A DNA stretch of 18,320 nt from the IMG/VR virus record IMGVR_UViG_2728369556_000002; one strand, written 5' to 3'. Shown here piece after piece: positions 714-18,247 of the stretch. Within the stretch, counting starts at the first letter, position 1. Each line of letters starts with the position of its first letter. A program made the position numbers and the translations under genes. The notes under the pieces are model-generated. The model made no database searches, was not told the origin of the DNA, and saw only the letters and a list, made by a program, of their open reading frames with translations. Source of the stretch: a virus. Lineage: Duplodnaviria > Heunggongvirae > Uroviricota > Caudoviricetes.

Positions 714-3700
714 CCCGACGCGATGACTGCATAATTGACACAACCCTGCTGTCGATCAGATCCACCAGTCCCCTGGCTGAGCGCGCATCTATCTCGCCAT
801 TGCTCCCTTGATTCTGAATGCTGATGTGATACACGGGAGAATAAACAAATCCACCGCCACCATTCACATCTCCAATGGCCCTGACCCCAAGAGAGCCGTC
901 CGCTGCCCGTGTCAGTGGCATGATTGCTTCAGGCCCGGCCTCGCCCATCAACCCGGCCCCCTTCGCAAAAGCAAAATACGTCGGTGTATCCACAATAGTG
1001 TTACTGTAAGCACTCAGATTTGCCGATGTGTAAACACCACCTTTTGCGTTTGCCACTGCCCCCGAAATCCATCCGCCGACCGTACCAAGCCACCCTCCGG
1101 CACCGGAGAGTGATTTCAGTCCGTTAACAATGGCTGCATTCATCAGAATTTTTGAAACTTCCCGGAGAACTGAACTCCCCCAGTTCCTCCAGTCCACAAC
1201 ATTTCCGGCCAGTGCATCGGAAATATTTGATACCAGCCCGTCCATAGTGGAAACGACAGCATCTGCCGCCTGCGAAGCATAATCGGTGGCACTGTCTGCC
1301 CAGTTGGTCAGCCCCTCCTGGAGTCCTGCATTCCAGTTATTACGTAAAGCATCGGCCTTTGCATAATAATCCTGCTGATCGCTGAGACGCTCTTCCAGAT
1401 ATTTTTTATTCAGTTCTTTCTCCTGTTTCCACAGGGCTTCTTCAATTTCTCCGGCCTGATACTGTCTCAGCAGCTCGTTATTTTTCTGCTCAAACTCATG
1501 CCGGATACTCCACATTTCCTGGAGTCGTTCACGCATCCGTGAGCCTTCACCATATCCCAGTAACTGCGCGTCGTTAGACGCCCGGGTACTGGCATTACTG
1601 TCCGCCAGGCTGCTTTCATACGCAGCAAGCTGCTCACGAATCTTTTTCTGGTCGATGAGTGCTGCATTCTGCAAAAGCGTTTTTTTCTGCGCTTCTGACA
1701 GGGTTGATAATTCGCCCTGACTGACCTGATATTTCATCTTAGCCAGTTCAGTATTCTGCCCTGCCAGTGCTATCTGTTCTTTTTGCTGTTTAATCAGCCG
1801 TTTATAAATATCTTCTGTTTTTTCCGCTTCGGTCTTTTTATGCGCTTTGGGTTTATTTGCCTGGTTATTTCGCCAGGCATCCAGTGAGTTATTGATATAA
1901 TTCTGTCTGGCTGTCTGATACGCCTCTCCCACAAAGCCAAGATCATCCGCAGCATAGCCCAGTCGAGCACGCTCACGCGCTTCCCCCTTAAGGCGGGACA
2001 GAGCCAGTTCGCGCTTGCTGTTATTCAGTGCGGTCTGCTGTTTATCATCCAGGGTTGCCTGTGGTAGCCGTAACGGTACATTCACCAACCCCTGTCGCTG
2101 CTGAAGTAATTCATTACCAAGCCCAAGAAGGCGATTAAACTCGGTATGCTGCCCATTCATGATCAACAGGGACTGATACGCTTTGTTTTGTTCCGCCGCC
2201 TGTTGACGGATCAACGCAACCCGCCGCTCCTCCAGCCCGGCAAGCACATCCTGAATGGATTGCGCTTTGCCCTGCATTTGTGTGAGACGGGACTGTTCAA
2301 CTGCCAGTTGATTTGTTGCTTCTGCAAGCCCTTCTGTGACTGTTTTTACCGACGTCATGTGGTTAATCATAAAACCGTTATCGGTTGTCCAGCCCGGGTT
2401 TGCCAGCACATACTGATAGCCAGCAATTTTTTCCTGTAAGGATTTAATCTTACTTTTCTGCTCGTCAATTAACCTGTTTTGCTCATCAAGTGCCTGCCGC
2501 GTCTTTTCCTCATTATCTGACGCTTCAGGAAGCGACATTGCCGACGTTTTCTGGCGAATTTCGTCGATTGTTGCGGCATACTGGCGTGCAGATTCTCTGG
2601 CCTGCTCCTGATTCTGATACATCGTGTACCAGGCCGTCGCCCCCAGCATGACGAGTCCCGGCACACCACCAACCAGCCCCAGCGCACCACTTAACAGACG
2701 ACTCCCCACTGACGTGACAGTATTCAGCGTTGTCTGCGCCGCTGTTCTGGCCGCAATATTACGGGTAAGTGACGCCTGAGCAGCTGTCAGCTTCGCTTCT
2801 GCTGCGGCCTGCCTTTCGGTACCGCGAGCAGCAACAACCGCCTGTTGCGCACGATAAACCGCCGCACGCGCTCTGGCGGTTGCTATCTGTGTCCCCCGAA
2901 GTTGCGCTTCAGCAAGAGCCACTTCGTTTCTGGCTGCAGTAATTAATCCGGCAGTTGCAGATCCAGCAGACGACGCCATATTGCCAAAATATCGGGCTAC
3001 CCCGACGGCAACCAGTGCGCCAGCTGCAGCAGCCACGGTATCAATATTGTCTGCAACACCATTCAGCACACCGGAGAGTGTCTTTGTCACTCCGCTTGCC
3101 TCGTTCGCACCACCAACCCAGGCCATAAAGGCGTTTTCAACTTTGGTTGCAGAGGATGAAACAGTATCAGGCATTGCTGCATATTCATCACGCAACGCCC
3201 CAAGCTGACTAATCAGTGCAGGAACAACCTTATCGGCGGTCAGTTTTCCGTTATCCGCCATGGCCTTCAGATCCTTACGGGCAACCCCCATTCCCGCAGC
3301 CAGCGCACGAATAACACGATCGCCGTTCTCATTCACCGAGTTAAACTCTTCACCGCGCAGCACTCCCTGCGCCAGTGCCTGACTGAACTGCATGATCACC
3401 GAACTGGCTTCTGCTGTACTGGCACCGGATAATTTCAGGCCCGTGGAGATCGCCTCGGTGACTTTCAGTACCTCCTCAGAACTGTAACCATACTCCCGCA
3501 TGGAAGCTGCAGAACGGGCAAAAAGGCTGGCGTTATCAGAAAACGCCGTCCCCGTTCTCTGGCTGATCGCCATTAATTCACGCTGTGATGCCTGAAAATC
3601 ATCACTGGACTGTGAGGCCTGCTTCAGACGGGCATTTACTGAATTCCACTCATCGGCGAGAGAAATAAGATGACCGGTAGCAAAAGCCCCGGCAAATGCC

Positions 3701-3924
3701 CCCGCCATATTCAGTGCCGAAGATTTAGCTGTATTTATCTGATCCGTCACTTCTGCCAGTGCACGCCGCATTTCACGGGAGGCAGCAGCAGACTGTTGGC
3801 CTCCGTTCTGCATGGTGCGGTAGTAATCCTGCCCCATACGCGAAGCCCGGGAGATCTCTGACTGGAATGACCGGGAGTTTGCCGAGATTTTAATAATCAG
3901 TTCACGTAATGTCGCCACACTCAT
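691..3924 (-). CDS. H: tail tape measure protein (gpH-like)
   Basis: 1077-aa ORF with Ala/Gln-rich coiled-coil composition, located directly after the G/T chaperone pair and before M and L. Confidence 0.93.
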   Translation of the reverse strand: MSVATLRELIIKISANSRSFQSEISRASRMGQDYYRTMQNGGQQSAAASREMRRALAEVTDQINTAKSSALNMAGAFAGAFATGHLISLADEWNSVNARLKQASQSSDDFQASQRELMAISQRTGTAFSDNASLFARSAASMREYGYSSEEVLKVTEAISTGLKLSGASTAEASSVIMQFSQALAQGVLRGEEFNSVNENGDRVIRALAAGMGVARKDLKAMADNGKLTADKVVPALISQLGALRDEYAAMPDTVSSSATKVENAFMAWVGGANEASGVTKTLSGVLNGVADNIDTVAAAAGALVAVGVARYFGNMASSAGSATAGLITAARNEVALAEAQLRGTQIATARARAAVYRAQQAVVAARGTERQAAAEAKLTAAQASLTRNIAARTAAQTTLNTVTSVGSRLLSGALGLVGGVPGLVMLGATAWYTMYQNQEQARESARQYAATIDEIRQKTSAMSLPEASDNEEKTRQALDEQNRLIDEQKSKIKSLQEKIAGYQYVLANPGWTTDNGFMINHMTSVKTVTEGLAEATNQLAVEQSRLTQMQGKAQSIQDVLAGLEERRVALIRQQAAEQNKAYQSLLIMNGQHTEFNRLLGLGNELLQQRQGLVNVPLRLPQATLDDKQQTALNNSKRELALSRLKGEARERARLGYAADDLGFVGEAYQTARQNYINNSLDAWRNNQANKPKAHKKTEAEKTEDIYKRLIKQQKEQIALAGQNTELAKMKYQVSQGELSTLSEAQKKTLLQNAALIDQKKIREQLAAYESSLADSNASTRASNDAQLLGYGEGSRMRERLQEMWSIRHEFEQKNNELLRQYQAGEIEEALWKQEKELNKKYLEERLSDQQDYYAKADALRNNWNAGLQEGLTNWADSATDYASQAADAVVSTMDGLVSNISDALAGNVVDWRNWGSSVLREVSKILMNAAIVNGLKSLSGAGGWLGTVGGWISGAVANAKGGVYTSANLSAYSNTIVDTPTYFAFAKGAGLMGEAGPEAIMPLTRAADGSLGVRAIGDVNGGGGFVYSPVYHISIQNQGSNGEIDARSARGLVDLIDSRVVSIMQSSRRDGGLYSA

Positions 3925-3932
3925 TCTCCGGA

Positions 3933-3955
3933 CGAAAAAAAACCGCCGAAGCGGT
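3933..3955 (-). terminator. intrinsic terminator-like hairpin between the GT and tape measure genes
   Basis: Minus strand reads AACCGCTTCGGCGGTT followed by TTTTTTTT (plus 3933-3955), immediately upstream of the H ribosome-binding site. Confidence 0.4.
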
Positions 3956-12878: not shown

Positions 12879-12998
12879 ATGTACTCCAATGAAGAAGCCA
12901 CCGACATAGCCTCCTCCATTCATAGTGAAACTATTTTCATCTACCCAGTAATGAATTCTTTGTAGAGTTGTGATCAATACAACTCACTAATGGAGAGG

Positions 12999-13020
12999 CT
13001 TGTCCAACACGTTGGACAAG
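12999..13020. repeat. inverted repeat, 10-bp arms with 2-bp spacer
   Basis: CTTGTCCAAC ac GTTGGACAAG; the arms are exact reverse complements. Confidence 0.8.
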
Positions 13021-13100
13021 TTTCCTGTTTGATTTACTGGACACTATAGAAGGACAGAATGCCTTCATCACTCGAATAACATCAATTAAGGAGGTTCAAC

Positions 13101-13223
13101 ATGTTTCATTCCACAAATCATCAGGCTGTAATTATGGCTGCATCAGCTTGTGCCACAGACCTTTTCCGCTTCACTTTGAGCCTGATTCATTTCTACCTGA
13201 CCGGCTCGCCTCTATCTTTTTAA
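13101..13223 (+). CDS. hypothetical 40-aa protein
   Basis: Near-consensus AAGGAGG ribosome-binding site 6 nt upstream of the ATG. Encodes MFHSTNHQAVIMAASACATDLFRFTLSLIHFYLTGSPLSF. A palindrome lies about 80 nt upstream. Below the ORF-track cutoff. Confidence 0.3.
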   Translation: MFHSTNHQAVIMAASACATDLFRFTLSLIHFYLTGSPLSF

Positions 13224-13403
13224 TCCCCGCTTTATCCAAATTGCATTGCCAGAATGCCGACAACAGACTGACATTCAAATCCTGACTACCTCCAATAGGC
13301 TGAGCATCCACCTATATAGTTTTAATTTTCATCAATCCATTTAACTATCGTTTAATTGTTGTCACATAGGATTCTGCCGTTTTTAACAATGCAGGATAAT
13401 AAG

Positions 13404-13697
13404 ATGAAAAAAATGTTGTTTTCTGCCGCTCTGGCAATGCTTATTACAGGATGTGCTCAACAGACGTTTACTGTTGGAAACAAACCGACAGCAGTAACAC
13501 CAAAGGAAACCATCACCCATCATTTCTTCGTTTCGGGAATTGGACAGGAGAAAACTGTTGATGCAGCCAAAATTTGTGGCGGCGCAGAAAATGTTGTTAA
13601 AACAGAAACCCAGCAAACATTCGTAAATGGATTTCTCGGTTTTATTACTTTAGGCATTTATACTCCACTGGAAGCGCGTGTGTATTGCTCACAATAA
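13404..13697 (+). CDS. bor: Bor outer-membrane lipoprotein (serum-resistance, Iss-like)
   Basis: MKKMLFSAALAMLITGCAQQTFTV... has a lipobox and is nearly collinear with lambda Bor as I recall it. On the opposite strand to the late genes, as in lambda. Confidence 0.92.
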   Translation: MKKMLFSAALAMLITGCAQQTFTVGNKPTAVTPKETITHHFFVSGIGQEKTVDAAKICGGAENVVKTETQQTFVNGFLGFITLGIYTPLEARVYCSQ

Positions 13698-15138: not shown

Positions 15139-15354
15139 TTACTCTCCCCGTGCCGCCTTACGACGGTCCTCTCTGATTTTGAAATACAGGTTAGTCAGAT
15201 ATGTCAGCAGCCCAAACAGCAGACTCCCCAGCACGCCTATTGCCGCCCACTGAGACGGGGAAACCCTGTCCAGCAACTGCAGGAACCAGTAGCCCGTTCC
15301 CACCGCTGACGTGGTGTATGACACACCTGTTGTGATTTTTTCCATCTGGTCCAT
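15139..15354 (-). CDS. class II holin / pinholin (phage 21 S-like), dual-start
   Basis: ORF track 15139..15459. Real start is the ATG at 15354 ([10 protein letters not shown]..., 71 aa) with GGGAGA upstream. Two in-frame Met codons at positions 1 and 4. C-terminus ...[30 protein letters not shown]. Confidence 0.88.
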
Positions 15355-15386
15355 ACCCCGTCTCCCGTTATCCGGAAGCTGACAAC

Positions 15387-15418
15387 AATAAAAAAGCCAC
15401 CAGTTAACTACTGATGGC
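15387..15418 (-). terminator. intrinsic terminator about 35 nt upstream of the holin gene
   Basis: Minus strand reads GCCATCAGTAGTTAACTGGTGGC (7-bp stem with one G-U pair) followed by TTTTTTATTG. Confidence 0.5.
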
Positions 15419-15661
15419 TCTGATAACTCATGCAAGCGTCTCAGACGATCCACTGACACTACCGGTGAGTTTAACGATACCTTCCATTTGACTGGCTCAC
15501 TTTTTATGATGATGCCGGTGTATTTATCTCCAGCACCAGACTTTCTATCTCAACGCCATACGTTGCATTTTTGGTAATATCCGTCAGCGTCAGTGCATTT
15601 AGTCCCACTGCCAGACCGTCTTTTATGGTCTGGAATGCCGGGCCAGTACGATGACGTAGTA

Positions 15662-15850
15662 TCACTCCGGCTCAGTTGCACCACTGACCACCACATCACC
15701 TTCTGCTGCAATCGCCTGCATCAGGGTATAAGGGGTTATGGCCACCGGACTACCAAACGGCTGCCAGCCCTCTTTCAGTTTATGTGTCAGCTTTTCCGCA
15801 AGATCTGACGGCGGCGCCGCCCTGACAACATCATAGTGTTTAAATGCCAT
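15662..15850 (-). CDS. hypothetical small protein upstream of the holin (possibly DUF1737-like)
   Basis: ORF track 15662..15865. Likely start is the ATG at 15850 (MAFKHYDVVR..., 62 aa) with GGAAAG upstream. Family name is a low-confidence recollection. Confidence 0.5.
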   Translation of the reverse strand: MAFKHYDVVRAAPPSDLAEKLTHKLKEGWQPFGSPVAITPYTLMQAIAAEGDVVVSGATEPE

Positions 15851-16110
15851 GGTTCTTTCCACCATCTGAAAAATAATTCTTTAAAATACCAGACATGTAA
15901 CACAGAAAAAACACAAAACCATACCTTAAATAGAAACCTGATCATCAAGCAGATATGCATGGATAAACTACAAGACGAGATATAAACCACCCTGCATTTA
16001 AATAAACAATAAACAACATCAGAAAAATAATTCTGCTCTATGGTTTATATTCAAAAATATCATTTATACTTTTCAGAACATCACCAGCAAGGCATAAACA
16101 AGGAAGCTAA

Positions 16111-16446
16111 ATGAAGTGGATTGTAATTGATACAGTTATCCAGCCATCATGCGGAATATCTTTTTCAGTCATATGGAGTAAAGTAAAATTAATAATCTGG
16201 TATCAATCGGATGCTTTCTTACCTCCTGAAAGTATATTTACACTGACTCACACAGGTATCATGCTCAATAACAAAGTGCTACCTGTAACCATTTACAACG
16301 TAGTACCATTCAATAAAACATTCTGGAATTTAATCAAAAACAGCCAGGAATGCCCTACAAATACAGATAACGTATTGAATGAATGCTTTAATAACCGTTG
16401 CATTCTGCAAATATGTCCTTATGGACTAAAACAACAAAGTCCATAA
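16111..16446 (+). CDS. orphan low-GC protein of unknown function (111 aa)
   Basis: An uninterrupted 111-codon ORF in markedly AT-rich DNA, with AAGGAAG 6 nt upstream of the ATG. On the opposite strand to the late operon. No family recognised. Confidence 0.45.
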
Positions 16447-16448
16447 GG
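16417..16448. repeat. inverted repeat, 11-bp arms with 10-nt loop, at the 3' end of the orphan ORF
   Basis: CCTTATGGACT aaaacaacaa AGTCCATAAGG; the stop codon of ORF 16111..16446 lies inside the right arm. Confidence 0.8.
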
Positions 16449-16466
16449 AGTTTACTCACATCTGAC

Positions 16467-16640
16467 AAAATCAATATAAACAGCCCCTCCGGAGAGGGGC
16501 TGGAGAGTGGCGCTATGTGCCATTGCATGGTGCCGGGTGCCTCCCGGTGAATTCAGTACCAGCACCTGAATCCGCGATTATCCCATATACCTACTCGCTG
16601 ATTACCCCTCCGCACAGGGGGATTCACCATGCGAAATTTT
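16467..16640 (-). ncRNA. candidate structured small RNA, copy A
   Basis: Minus strand shows promoter-like boxes (TTGTCT, 18 nt, TGTTAAAAA), a 5' arm GCATGGTG, internal hairpins, a 3' arm CACCATGC, then terminator AGCCCCTC-TCCG-GAGGGGCT with a U-rich tail. Paralogous to copy B. Confidence 0.3.
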
Positions 16641-16935
16641 TTAACAAACTTCCCGCCGGCCAGACAATAATCGCCAGCCTGAATTATGAGCAACGTGGCA
16701 TTTTACGGGAAAACTGTTTTCTGCAGTAAAAAGGCCCGCCGGAGCGAGCCTGGAAGGATAGCGGTCATGTGATGCCGGTTTCCCGGTAACTCAGCATCGG
16801 TATCTGAGTCAACGTTTTCTCTACTGGGTCATTTCCGATACGTTCCGCCTTCCGGCAGACTTTCATCACGTCAGAAAATATAGCACCCTGAGTAACAGGA
16901 CAGTACTCAGAATTCAGGAAACTGTGACACATCCT

Positions 16936-17110
16936 GCACAGAAAAGCCCCTCCGGAGAGGGGCTGAAGTATAGCCTAATTTCTGTCTGTCGCATGGTGCC
17001 AGGGGCCTCCCGGTAAATTCAGCCTGTCTACTGAATTTGCATGTTCTCTGGATCATACACTTTGCCAGATGCCCCGCCGCTGAGGGGGATTCACCATGCG
17101 ATGTAATTTT
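16936..17110 (-). ncRNA. candidate structured small RNA, copy B
   Basis: Same block architecture as copy A, with identical terminator hairpin and promoter-like boxes but divergent loops and linkers. Confidence 0.3.
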
Positions 17111-17302
17111 TAACAAATTCTCCGGCAGCCAGACAATCATCAAGCTGTGGAATTGTGAGGTATTTAAAAATTTCAACGGGTAACTGATACCCTGCTAATC
17201 GCCTGATGCTTTCTTTTTCAGCAACGGGAAAGCAACAACCACACACCCGCCACCAAAACACCATCAGACAGCACCGACATTATCCGGCTGCTGAAGTCCA
17301 CC

Positions 17303-17479: not shown

Positions 17480-17555
17480 TGGTGGCCCTTGCTGGATTTG
17501 AACCAGCGACCTGGCGATTATGAGTCGCTCGCTCTCACCACTGAGCTAAAGGGCC
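17480..17555 (-). tRNA. tRNA with anticodon CAU, closest to tRNA-Ile2 (lysidine type); tRNA-Met not excluded
   Basis: 76-nt minus-strand sequence folds by hand into a cloverleaf: 7-bp acceptor stem GGCCCTT/AAGGGCC, D-arm GCTC..GAGC, anticodon loop CTCATAA, T-arm GCTGG TTCAAAT CCAGC, encoded 3' CCA. Closely resembles E. coli ileX as I recall it. Confidence 0.88.
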
Positions 17556-17698: not shown

Positions 17699-18247
17699 TT
17701 ACCTAGTTACCTTTTTTAACTGCCGCTCAGCCCATGCTTCTTCAATATCAAACCGGGTCACCAGCGCATCATAGAATTTCTTAACTGTTTTTTCCCATGA
17801 CGCGCGTGTTATCTGGTTTGTCACCTCGCATATAGCATTAAATGTCTCCGTTGATGGTAGTCTTTCATAGCCACGACCACCACAACGCTGGCAGTCTCTG
17901 ATAACAGGCATACCACGTTTTACCGACTCTTCACGATGAATGGCGACACCACGCCCACGGCAATCCTTACAGGCGGTGGAAACCTCACCCTTTCCGCCAC
18001 ACTCCGGACAGGCAACTTTTACCACCTCCCTGACTTTTTTCCATTCTTCCCAGTAAGACGAATACACACCTTTCGTACACTTTGCCCATACCGGCGGCTT
18101 ACCATCCGGATACTGGACCTTGTTTGTAAAAACTACGCTTTCAATAAATTTTTCCCCATAGCAACAAGGGCACTGCTTTTTACTCGCTGCGCTGCGGGCA
18201 TAATCCTCAAAAGCGTACGAATGCGTATTTTCATGAAAGGAGATCAC
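17699..18247 (-). CDS. Q: late antiterminator Q (lambda Q family)
   Basis: C-terminal half aligns by eye with lambda Q (YA.DY.RSAA...C..C.G.G...C..C.G.GY...P...W...VK..YDALV...VTR). Apparent GTG start at 18247, preceded by GGAAG. Confidence 0.85.
   Translation of the reverse strand: MISFHENTHSYAFEDYARSAASKKQCPCCYGEKFIESVVFTNKVQYPDGKPPVWAKCTKGVYSSYWEEWKKVREVVKVACPECGGKGEVSTACKDCRGRGVAIHREESVKRGMPVIRDCQRCGGRGYERLPSTETFNAICEVTNQITRASWEKTVKKFYDALVTRFDIEEAWAERQLKKVTR

Follow-up and report, generated by a model that had tools for sequence, protein, structure and literature searches.

The 18,320-nt stretch of phage DNA analysed here (the window) contains, in the gap between the antiterminator gene Q and the holin gene, an open reading frame (ORF) that lies in AT-rich DNA and runs against the late operon. 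We asked whether this ORF is a gene, to which protein family its product belongs, and how it is placed and controlled within the prophage.

Identity and distribution of the opposite-strand ORF

The ORF (16111..16446, plus strand) begins with ATG and maintains an intact frame over 111 codons, and a Shine-Dalgarno sequence, AAGGAA (16100-16105), stands 5 nt ahead of the start codon, in agreement with the ribosome-binding site of the original prediction. The accompanying expectation that so long a frame would be unlikely to arise by chance also held: when 5,000 blocks were simulated with a first-order Markov model at the length and composition of the AT-rich block and ATG-to-stop ORFs were counted, an ORF of at least 111 codons was present in 0.26% of them.

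The ORF had further been described as an orphan for which no family was recognised, and this description has to be abandoned. The translated protein matched NCBIfam NF007393, "anti-adapter protein IraM", at 162 bits (cutoff 121) and over its full length, with residues 1-110 aligning to profile positions 1-113 of 114; this IraM/IraL family profile is also represented by PRK09919. Along with this match, we identified PHROG 4407 (E 8e-73) and chain A of PDB entry 8TWD, which comprises residues 1-78 of IraM bound to RssB (E 8.7e-32), and found that the identical sequence is already labelled 'anti-adapter protein IraM' in RefSeq and GenBank phage records. A Pfam-A hmmscan of the protein returned no match at E <= 1 or at E <= 10.

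Within this family, the protein is identical at 109 of 111 residues (98.2%) to IraL (WP_000871291) of uropathogenic Escherichia coli CFT073, whose gene is located at NC_004431 1343465-1343800 and which was characterised by Hryckowian et al. 2014, mBio (PMC4045071); V25I and I98T separate the two proteins. CFT073 IraL interacts with RssB and increases the stability of RpoS in unstressed log-phase cells grown in LB (PMC4045071). The coding regions of the two genes agree at 332/336 nucleotides (98.8%), and the -100..+33 promoter region, the fragment used for complementation by the IraL authors (PMC4045071), at 129/133 (97.0%), and both values lie above the thresholds of that study, in which a gene counts as iraL when its coding sequence shares no less than 95% of nucleotides with the CFT073 gene and its promoter no less than 96% (PMC4045071). 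K-12-type iraM has only about 71% nucleotide identity to the window gene. The window and CFT073 genes also have in common their length, a QQSP extension, a 12-bp 3' hairpin, and the sequence of the mapped 5' end.

In sequence, fold and subtype alike, the product of the ORF belongs to the IraM/IraL/RssC family. With high confidence, we identify the ORF as iraL, a prophage-borne paralogue of iraM whose product is predicted to be an RssB anti-adaptor that would raise RpoS in the lysogen. As IraL has been characterised earlier and is already in public records, the gene is known rather than new: a 2014 publication described the gene, its protein family, its mechanism and its distribution among pathogenic E. 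coli, and the structure of the family followed in 2023. The useful outcome is a corrected label for the ORF: it is iraL, a stabiliser of RpoS borne by a prophage, and as such a lysogenic-conversion function that can raise the stress tolerance of the host strain.

The gene is also widespread. A megablast search with a 615-bp query recovered the iraL block at an identity of at least 90% in 1,442-1,446 of 5,426 complete E. coli genomes, where the matches were everywhere annotated "anti-adapter protein IraM", and four deposited Escherichia phage records hold the block at 100% identity. When a sensitive blastn search was used, a member of the IraM/IraL family was detected in 4,759/5,426 genomes, and nearly all of 60 rows sampled down the ranking corresponded to an intact CDS annotation. 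Comparisons between the three clades of the family, exemplified by IraL, K-12 IraM and a gene of Stx2 phages, gave saturated dS values of 1.1-2.0, dN values of 0.14-0.25 and a dN/dS of 0.10-0.17, a pattern of purifying selection.

Together with the family matches and the length of the frame, this ratio confirms the claim that the ORF is a real protein-coding gene. It was conceivable that the ORF had arisen by chance or was decaying, and that the block codes for nothing and does no more than space or insulate the lysis genes from the sRNA array; its low GC and the lack of a Pfam-A match would fit such a reading, and nothing more does. It is refuted by the strong profile, PDB and fold matches, by the dN/dS across three clades with saturated synonymous sites, by the 0.26% probability of a frame of such length, and by the existence of a 98%-identical gene that has been characterised genetically and biochemically (PMC4045071), and we assign it a negligible probability. 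A lack of homologues, or a frame broken in relatives, had been put forward as the observation that would dispose of the gene; homologues are instead abundant and their frame is conserved under purifying selection.

Fold, RssB contacts and relatives of IraL

We modelled the window protein with AF2 on the basis of 14 family sequences. The model has pLDDT values of 79-92 over residues 1-80, with strands in 2-66 and a helix at 69-77, and thus predicts over residues 1-78 the PmrD-like antiparallel beta-barrel and C-terminal helix seen in the IraM crystal. In Foldseek, the best match to residues 1-80 of the model was 8TWD_A (TM 0.88, rmsd 1.2 A), and the next matches were structures of PmrD (4HN7; TM 0.70-0.73), consistent with the structural relationship between IraM and PmrD already described by the IraM crystallographers (PMC10844676).

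PmrD (4HN7, 2JSO, 2RQX) is a PhoP-activated connector protein that targets PmrA. It resembles IraL in its fold of a beta-barrel and a helix and in being a small protein that binds a response-regulator-type protein, but differs in its target, which is PmrA and not RssB, in having only 13-19% sequence identity, and in the lack of a Cys-rich tail. Membership of the PmrD family (PF11183) was considered and rejected, as no Pfam-A match was obtained at E <= 10 for the window protein or two of its relatives. On the predicted model, IraL is a structural relative of PmrD and not a member of the PmrD family. A precomputed PF11183 tag is nevertheless attached to almost all of the family matches, yet direct hmmscan of the three proteins was blank at E <= 10.

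RssB hands RpoS over to ClpXP, a step that anti-adaptors prevent by binding to RssB (PMC10844676). In the case of IraM, binding involves both domains of RssB, the helical linker is remodelled, and the 4-5-5 face becomes occluded (PMC10844676). Contacts with RssB have been listed for 14 residues of IraM (PMC10844676); 10-11 of them are identical in the window protein, and conservation of these contacts is in keeping with membership of the family. All five contacts of cluster I are kept (I4, I6, W22, K26 and I42). C14, F18 and W30 of cluster II are kept, with T13S and L75I changed; I61 and Y62 of cluster III are kept, with H63N and I64V changed, and N63 and V64 are the majority residues across the IraM/IraL family. 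Because cluster III differs and IraL is reported to contact RssB differently from IraM (PMC4045071), the interface seen in 8TWD may not transfer exactly. We propose that IraL acts as a small PmrD-like beta-barrel protein that would bind RssB, the adaptor taking RpoS to the ClpXP protease; delivery of RpoS would then be blocked, RpoS would accumulate, and the general stress response would rise in the lysogen.

The C-terminal tail (codons 81-111, window 16351-16443) contains a cysteine pattern of the form C-x10-C-x4-C-x4-C. C81, C92, C97 and C102, as well as P82, P103 and G105, are invariant in 15/15 aligned family members, down to 53% identity. The tail of IraM was removed for crystallography and was called less conserved and flexible (PMC10844676), and the AF2 model is uninformative on the cysteine motif because its pLDDT falls below 50 for residues 81-111. 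The Cys tail may respond to metal or redox conditions as a module on which the stability or activity of the protein depends.

K-12 IraM (YcgW/ElbA, b1160; structure 8TWD) has the same family and fold as the window protein and is 60% identical to it, with identical first 12 residues and conservation of the cluster I contacts, the tail cysteines and the CPYGLK end. Its gene likewise lies in a prophage-remnant neighbourhood, beside e14. In contrast to IraL, it comprises 107 amino acids and lacks the QQSP extension; its gene has no 12-bp hairpin and is preceded by sequence unrelated to that upstream of iraL; and IraM is induced by Mg2+ starvation via PhoP/PhoQ, whereas IraL acts in log phase.

A third clade is formed by an IraM-family gene of Stx2a and Stx2c phages (LC567829, NC_011357), located between stx2B and a sialate esterase gene, whose product is 72% identical to IraL and 65% to IraM. 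Like iraL, it is opposite-strand cargo inside the Q-to-holin late region, and it converges on a AGCCCCTCCGGAGAGGGGCT terminator. It differs in encoding 107 amino acids, in having no 12-bp hairpin and a diverged promoter with a TATAAT -10, and in its neighbours, which are stx2AB and nanS-p where the window gene has STnc100 and DUF1737. In the locus from the Stx2a phage Stx2_EH2201, the gene of this clade is found at 3615-3938, and a separate locus carries it at 416-739. The Stx2-phage gene is unannotated in many phage records.

[quoted passage not shown] A tblastn match of 35% identity in a single fragment of a Salmonella phage would fit a distant relative.

The AT-rich block and its phage neighbourhood

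GC content is 0.324 in 15866-16470 and 0.339 in the ORF, compared with 0.508 in the rest of the window, which corroborates the originally noted AT-rich block and sets its base composition apart from that of the flanking phage genes. This 605-bp block (15866..16470), which holds iraL, its promoter and the 3' hairpin, is 97.9% identical to the corresponding block of CFT073. The flanking phage genes all lie on the minus strand and include Q (17699-18247, PF03589), a tRNA, a DUF1737 gene (15662..15865; PF08410, E 4e-17) that is the first late-operon gene downstream of the block, a P21-type holin (15139-15459), DUF1327/YdfR, lysozyme and Rz, such that iraL is transcribed opposite to the late operon.

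The same arrangement is found in CFT073, where iraL is also part of a lambdoid prophage, the "potB genomic island" at potB (PMC4045071), and occupies the same slot and orientation between Q/tRNA/DUF3927 and the DUF1737-holin genes. The order in CFT073 is antiterminator, IS200, three tRNAs, DUF3927, iraL (opposite strand), DUF1737, holin, YdfR and lysozyme. The two prophages differ in that CFT073 has three tRNAs and IS200 where the window prophage has one tRNA, and, unlike that of CFT073, the window prophage has a P27-family terminase with an HNH endonuclease and a Q of zinc-finger type. In strain M217, iraL is again found in the same slot and orientation, and DUF1737 is its neighbour there as in CFT073.

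In phage YYZ-2008 and several Stx1a phages, both the DUF1737 flank and an STnc100-like flank are shared with the window, and the AT-rich block is replaced by unrelated filler. Global alignment places the left boundary of the block at about 15852-15862, where homology to YYZ-2008 stops just upstream of the DUF1737 start. As the block is present or absent between shared flanks in related phages, it behaves as a discrete cargo module, or moron. Base composition and the comparison of flanks thus agree in supporting the original view that a moron occupies the gap between Q and holin, with its gene opposed to the late operon. Both strands of 15866-16470 were scanned with Rfam, and nothing was recovered.

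Several minor features of this neighbourhood were recorded. A 21-nt direct repeat, CA(C/A)CATC(T/A)GAAAAATAATTCT, occurs at 15860-15880 and 16014-16034, 154 bp apart; one copy lies where DUF1737 starts and the moron has its left edge, and the other just upstream of the iraL promoter. The window contains a second opposite-strand cargo gene, encoding a Bor/Iss serum-survival lipoprotein (13404-13697, plus strand), in a low-GC block (about 12900-13650, GC about 0.40) between Rz and the HNH/terminase genes. The tRNA (17480-17555, minus strand) has the anticodon CAT and was assigned as tRNA-Met by ARAGORN and, for the identical gene of M217, as tRNA-Ile by PGAP; it may be a lysidine-type tRNA-Ile2. 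DnaJ-like zinc-finger repeats of the form CxxCxGxG (PF00684, E 3e-7) are present in the window Q (PF03589). For the corresponding position in M217 and CFT073, PGAP gives a longer antitermination gene of 822 nt, and therefore the Q ORF of the window may be truncated or have a different start.

Promoter, 3' end and control of iraL

The published RACE 5' end of CFT073 iraL, 'ACATCACCAGCAAGGCATAAACAAGGAA...' (PMC4045071), matches the window at 16078, which gives a 33-nt leader (16078..16110, plus strand) that starts with A. Relative to this position, a putative sigma-70 promoter (16044..16070, plus strand) can be assigned, comprising a -35-like TTTATA (16044-16049), a 15-nt spacer and the -10 element TATACT (16065-16070). 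It was not reported by a consensus promoter scan that allowed spacers of 16-18 nt. Four SNPs distinguish the promoter and leader from those of CFT073: one in the -35-like hexamer (16048), one adjoining the start (16077) and two adjacent to the Shine-Dalgarno sequence (16106 and 16108). At 16048, the window has T (TTTATA) where CFT073 and 5/6 sampled alleles have C (TTTACA), and exact-word searches of complete E. coli genomes found T in 284 and C in 1,075, which makes T the minority form.

This substitution raises the question of whether the gene, although iraL by descent, is transcribed in the lysogen poorly or not at all, through the -35 C-to-T change, silencing of AT-rich DNA, or both. Such an allele would have little effect on RpoS in ordinary growth, and would act on a specific signal or be decaying. 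The minority status of T at 16048 points in this direction, as does the GC content of the block, as values near 0.32 are typical of H-NS-bound DNA. A passage of the IraL paper also mentions a -35 point mutation of uncertain effect in JJ1886 iraL2 and other strains (PMC4045071). On the other side, the coding frame is intact, the protein differs by just two amino-acid changes that are both conservative, no change affects the -10 element, the start site or the core of the Shine-Dalgarno sequence, and hundreds of genomes have retained this allele in identical form. A weak or silent allele is thus the less likely case, albeit one that we take seriously; the window allele probably encodes a functional anti-adaptor that is expressed despite the C-to-T change in the -35-like hexamer and raises RpoS in the lysogen.

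It is also pertinent whether iraL, like K-12 iraM, would be induced by PhoP/PhoQ at low Mg2+ and not expressed constitutively in log phase. IraM is induced by Mg2+ starvation (PMC10844676), an effect credited to PhoP/PhoQ by a 2024 review (PMC10948607), and neither PhoP nor Mg2+ was examined for IraL in the 2014 study (PMC4045071). PhoP would act through a candidate PhoP-box-like direct repeat in reverse orientation, TGTTTA-TTGTT-TATTTA (15999..16015, minus strand), which fits 11/12 positions and is centred ~71 nt upstream of the iraL start. In the diverged promoter of the Stx2c-clade homologue, the site that aligns with this repeat reads CGTTTA-TTCTT-TGTTTA, also at 11/12, with the mismatch in the other half-site. 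The score is, however, reached by 4.9% of shuffles, marginally better than chance in AT-rich DNA, and the repeat does not overlap the -35 region, where the PhoP boxes of most activated promoters lie. Moreover, the upstream regions of iraL and K-12 iraM are not alignable, and IraL lifts RpoS in unstressed log-phase LB cultures (PMC4045071). Taken together, we regard PhoP/PhoQ induction of iraL as improbable.

The level of IraL is higher in a CFT073 fur mutant (PMC7157518). The best candidate Fur box upstream of iraL matched 11/19 positions, a score reached by 95% of shuffles, and was rejected; as the score lies below that of typical shuffles, direct Fur control has no sequence support.

At the 3' end of iraL, the original prediction of a perfect inverted repeat with a 10-nt loop and the stop codon inside it stands, with the correction that the repeat measures 12 bp and not 11. 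Its arms, TCCTTATGGACT (16416-16427) and AGTCCATAAGGA (16438-16449), are 100% complementary, and the right one contains the TAA stop (16444-16446). The resulting candidate 3' stem-loop of the iraL mRNA (16416..16449, plus strand) folds as RNA with -17.5 kcal/mol (z = -6.3 relative to shuffles). An intrinsic terminator was considered but found no support: no T-run follows the hairpin, which would leave the RNA without a U-tract, and the terminator scan did not call it. In six other iraL-type loci the hairpin is invariant but for one A-to-G change that keeps a G-U pair, and covariation is not assessable because the iraL alleles are almost invariant there. Nor is the hairpin a family-wide feature, as it is missing from K-12 iraM and from the Stx2-phage gene, both of which have their stop at codon 108; the hairpin and the four extra codons (QQSP) occur in the iraL clade only. 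We infer that it is a 3' stem-loop of uncertain function, which may form the mRNA 3' end or stabilise it.

Further downstream is a copy of the STnc100 sRNA on the opposite strand (16472..16660, minus; Rfam RF02076, 132.5 bits, gathering score 47), whose terminator hairpin (16481-16502, minus strand) is the first strong hairpin beyond iraL, with fold energies of -19 kcal/mol on the plus strand and -20.3 kcal/mol on the minus strand. This hairpin starts 31 nt past the 12-bp hairpin, and thus the iraL and STnc100 transcripts converge, as had been foreseen when a structured element with a terminator was placed beyond the ORF. As regards autonomy of the moron, the transcription start is placed by homology to the CFT073 RACE end, and on the 3' side the hairpin without a U-tract is followed by the terminator of the opposite-strand sRNA.

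We propose that the iraL block would be a self-contained unit that brings along a sigma-70 promoter, a leader of 33 nt and a Shine-Dalgarno sequence and is set against the late operon; on one side of it lies the region of Q, the sRNAs and the tRNA, on the other the DUF1737-holin lysis cassette. Once the prophage is induced, RNA polymerase modified by Q could pass the STnc100 terminators and run antisense through iraL, silencing it, a suggestion that derives from the Q antitermination known from lambda biology. If true, such a shut-off by late transcription in lytic growth would tie RpoS stability to the lysogenic state. Further regulation of iraL by PhoP input, a Cys-tail module or antisense shut-off is doubtful, and any of these would add detail to a known system and not a new kind of system.

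The STnc100 copy next to iraL is the first of three STnc100-like sRNA units that follow one another in tandem from iraL towards Q, all on the minus strand (16472-16660, 16725-16900 and 16936-17129). Two of the units are strong (132.5 and 138 bits) and the middle one is degenerate, reaching 30 bits where the gathering score is 47. STnc100 has been linked to the PasD prophage sRNAs in a 2026 preprint. Every STnc100-like unit of the window closes with a GC-rich terminator.
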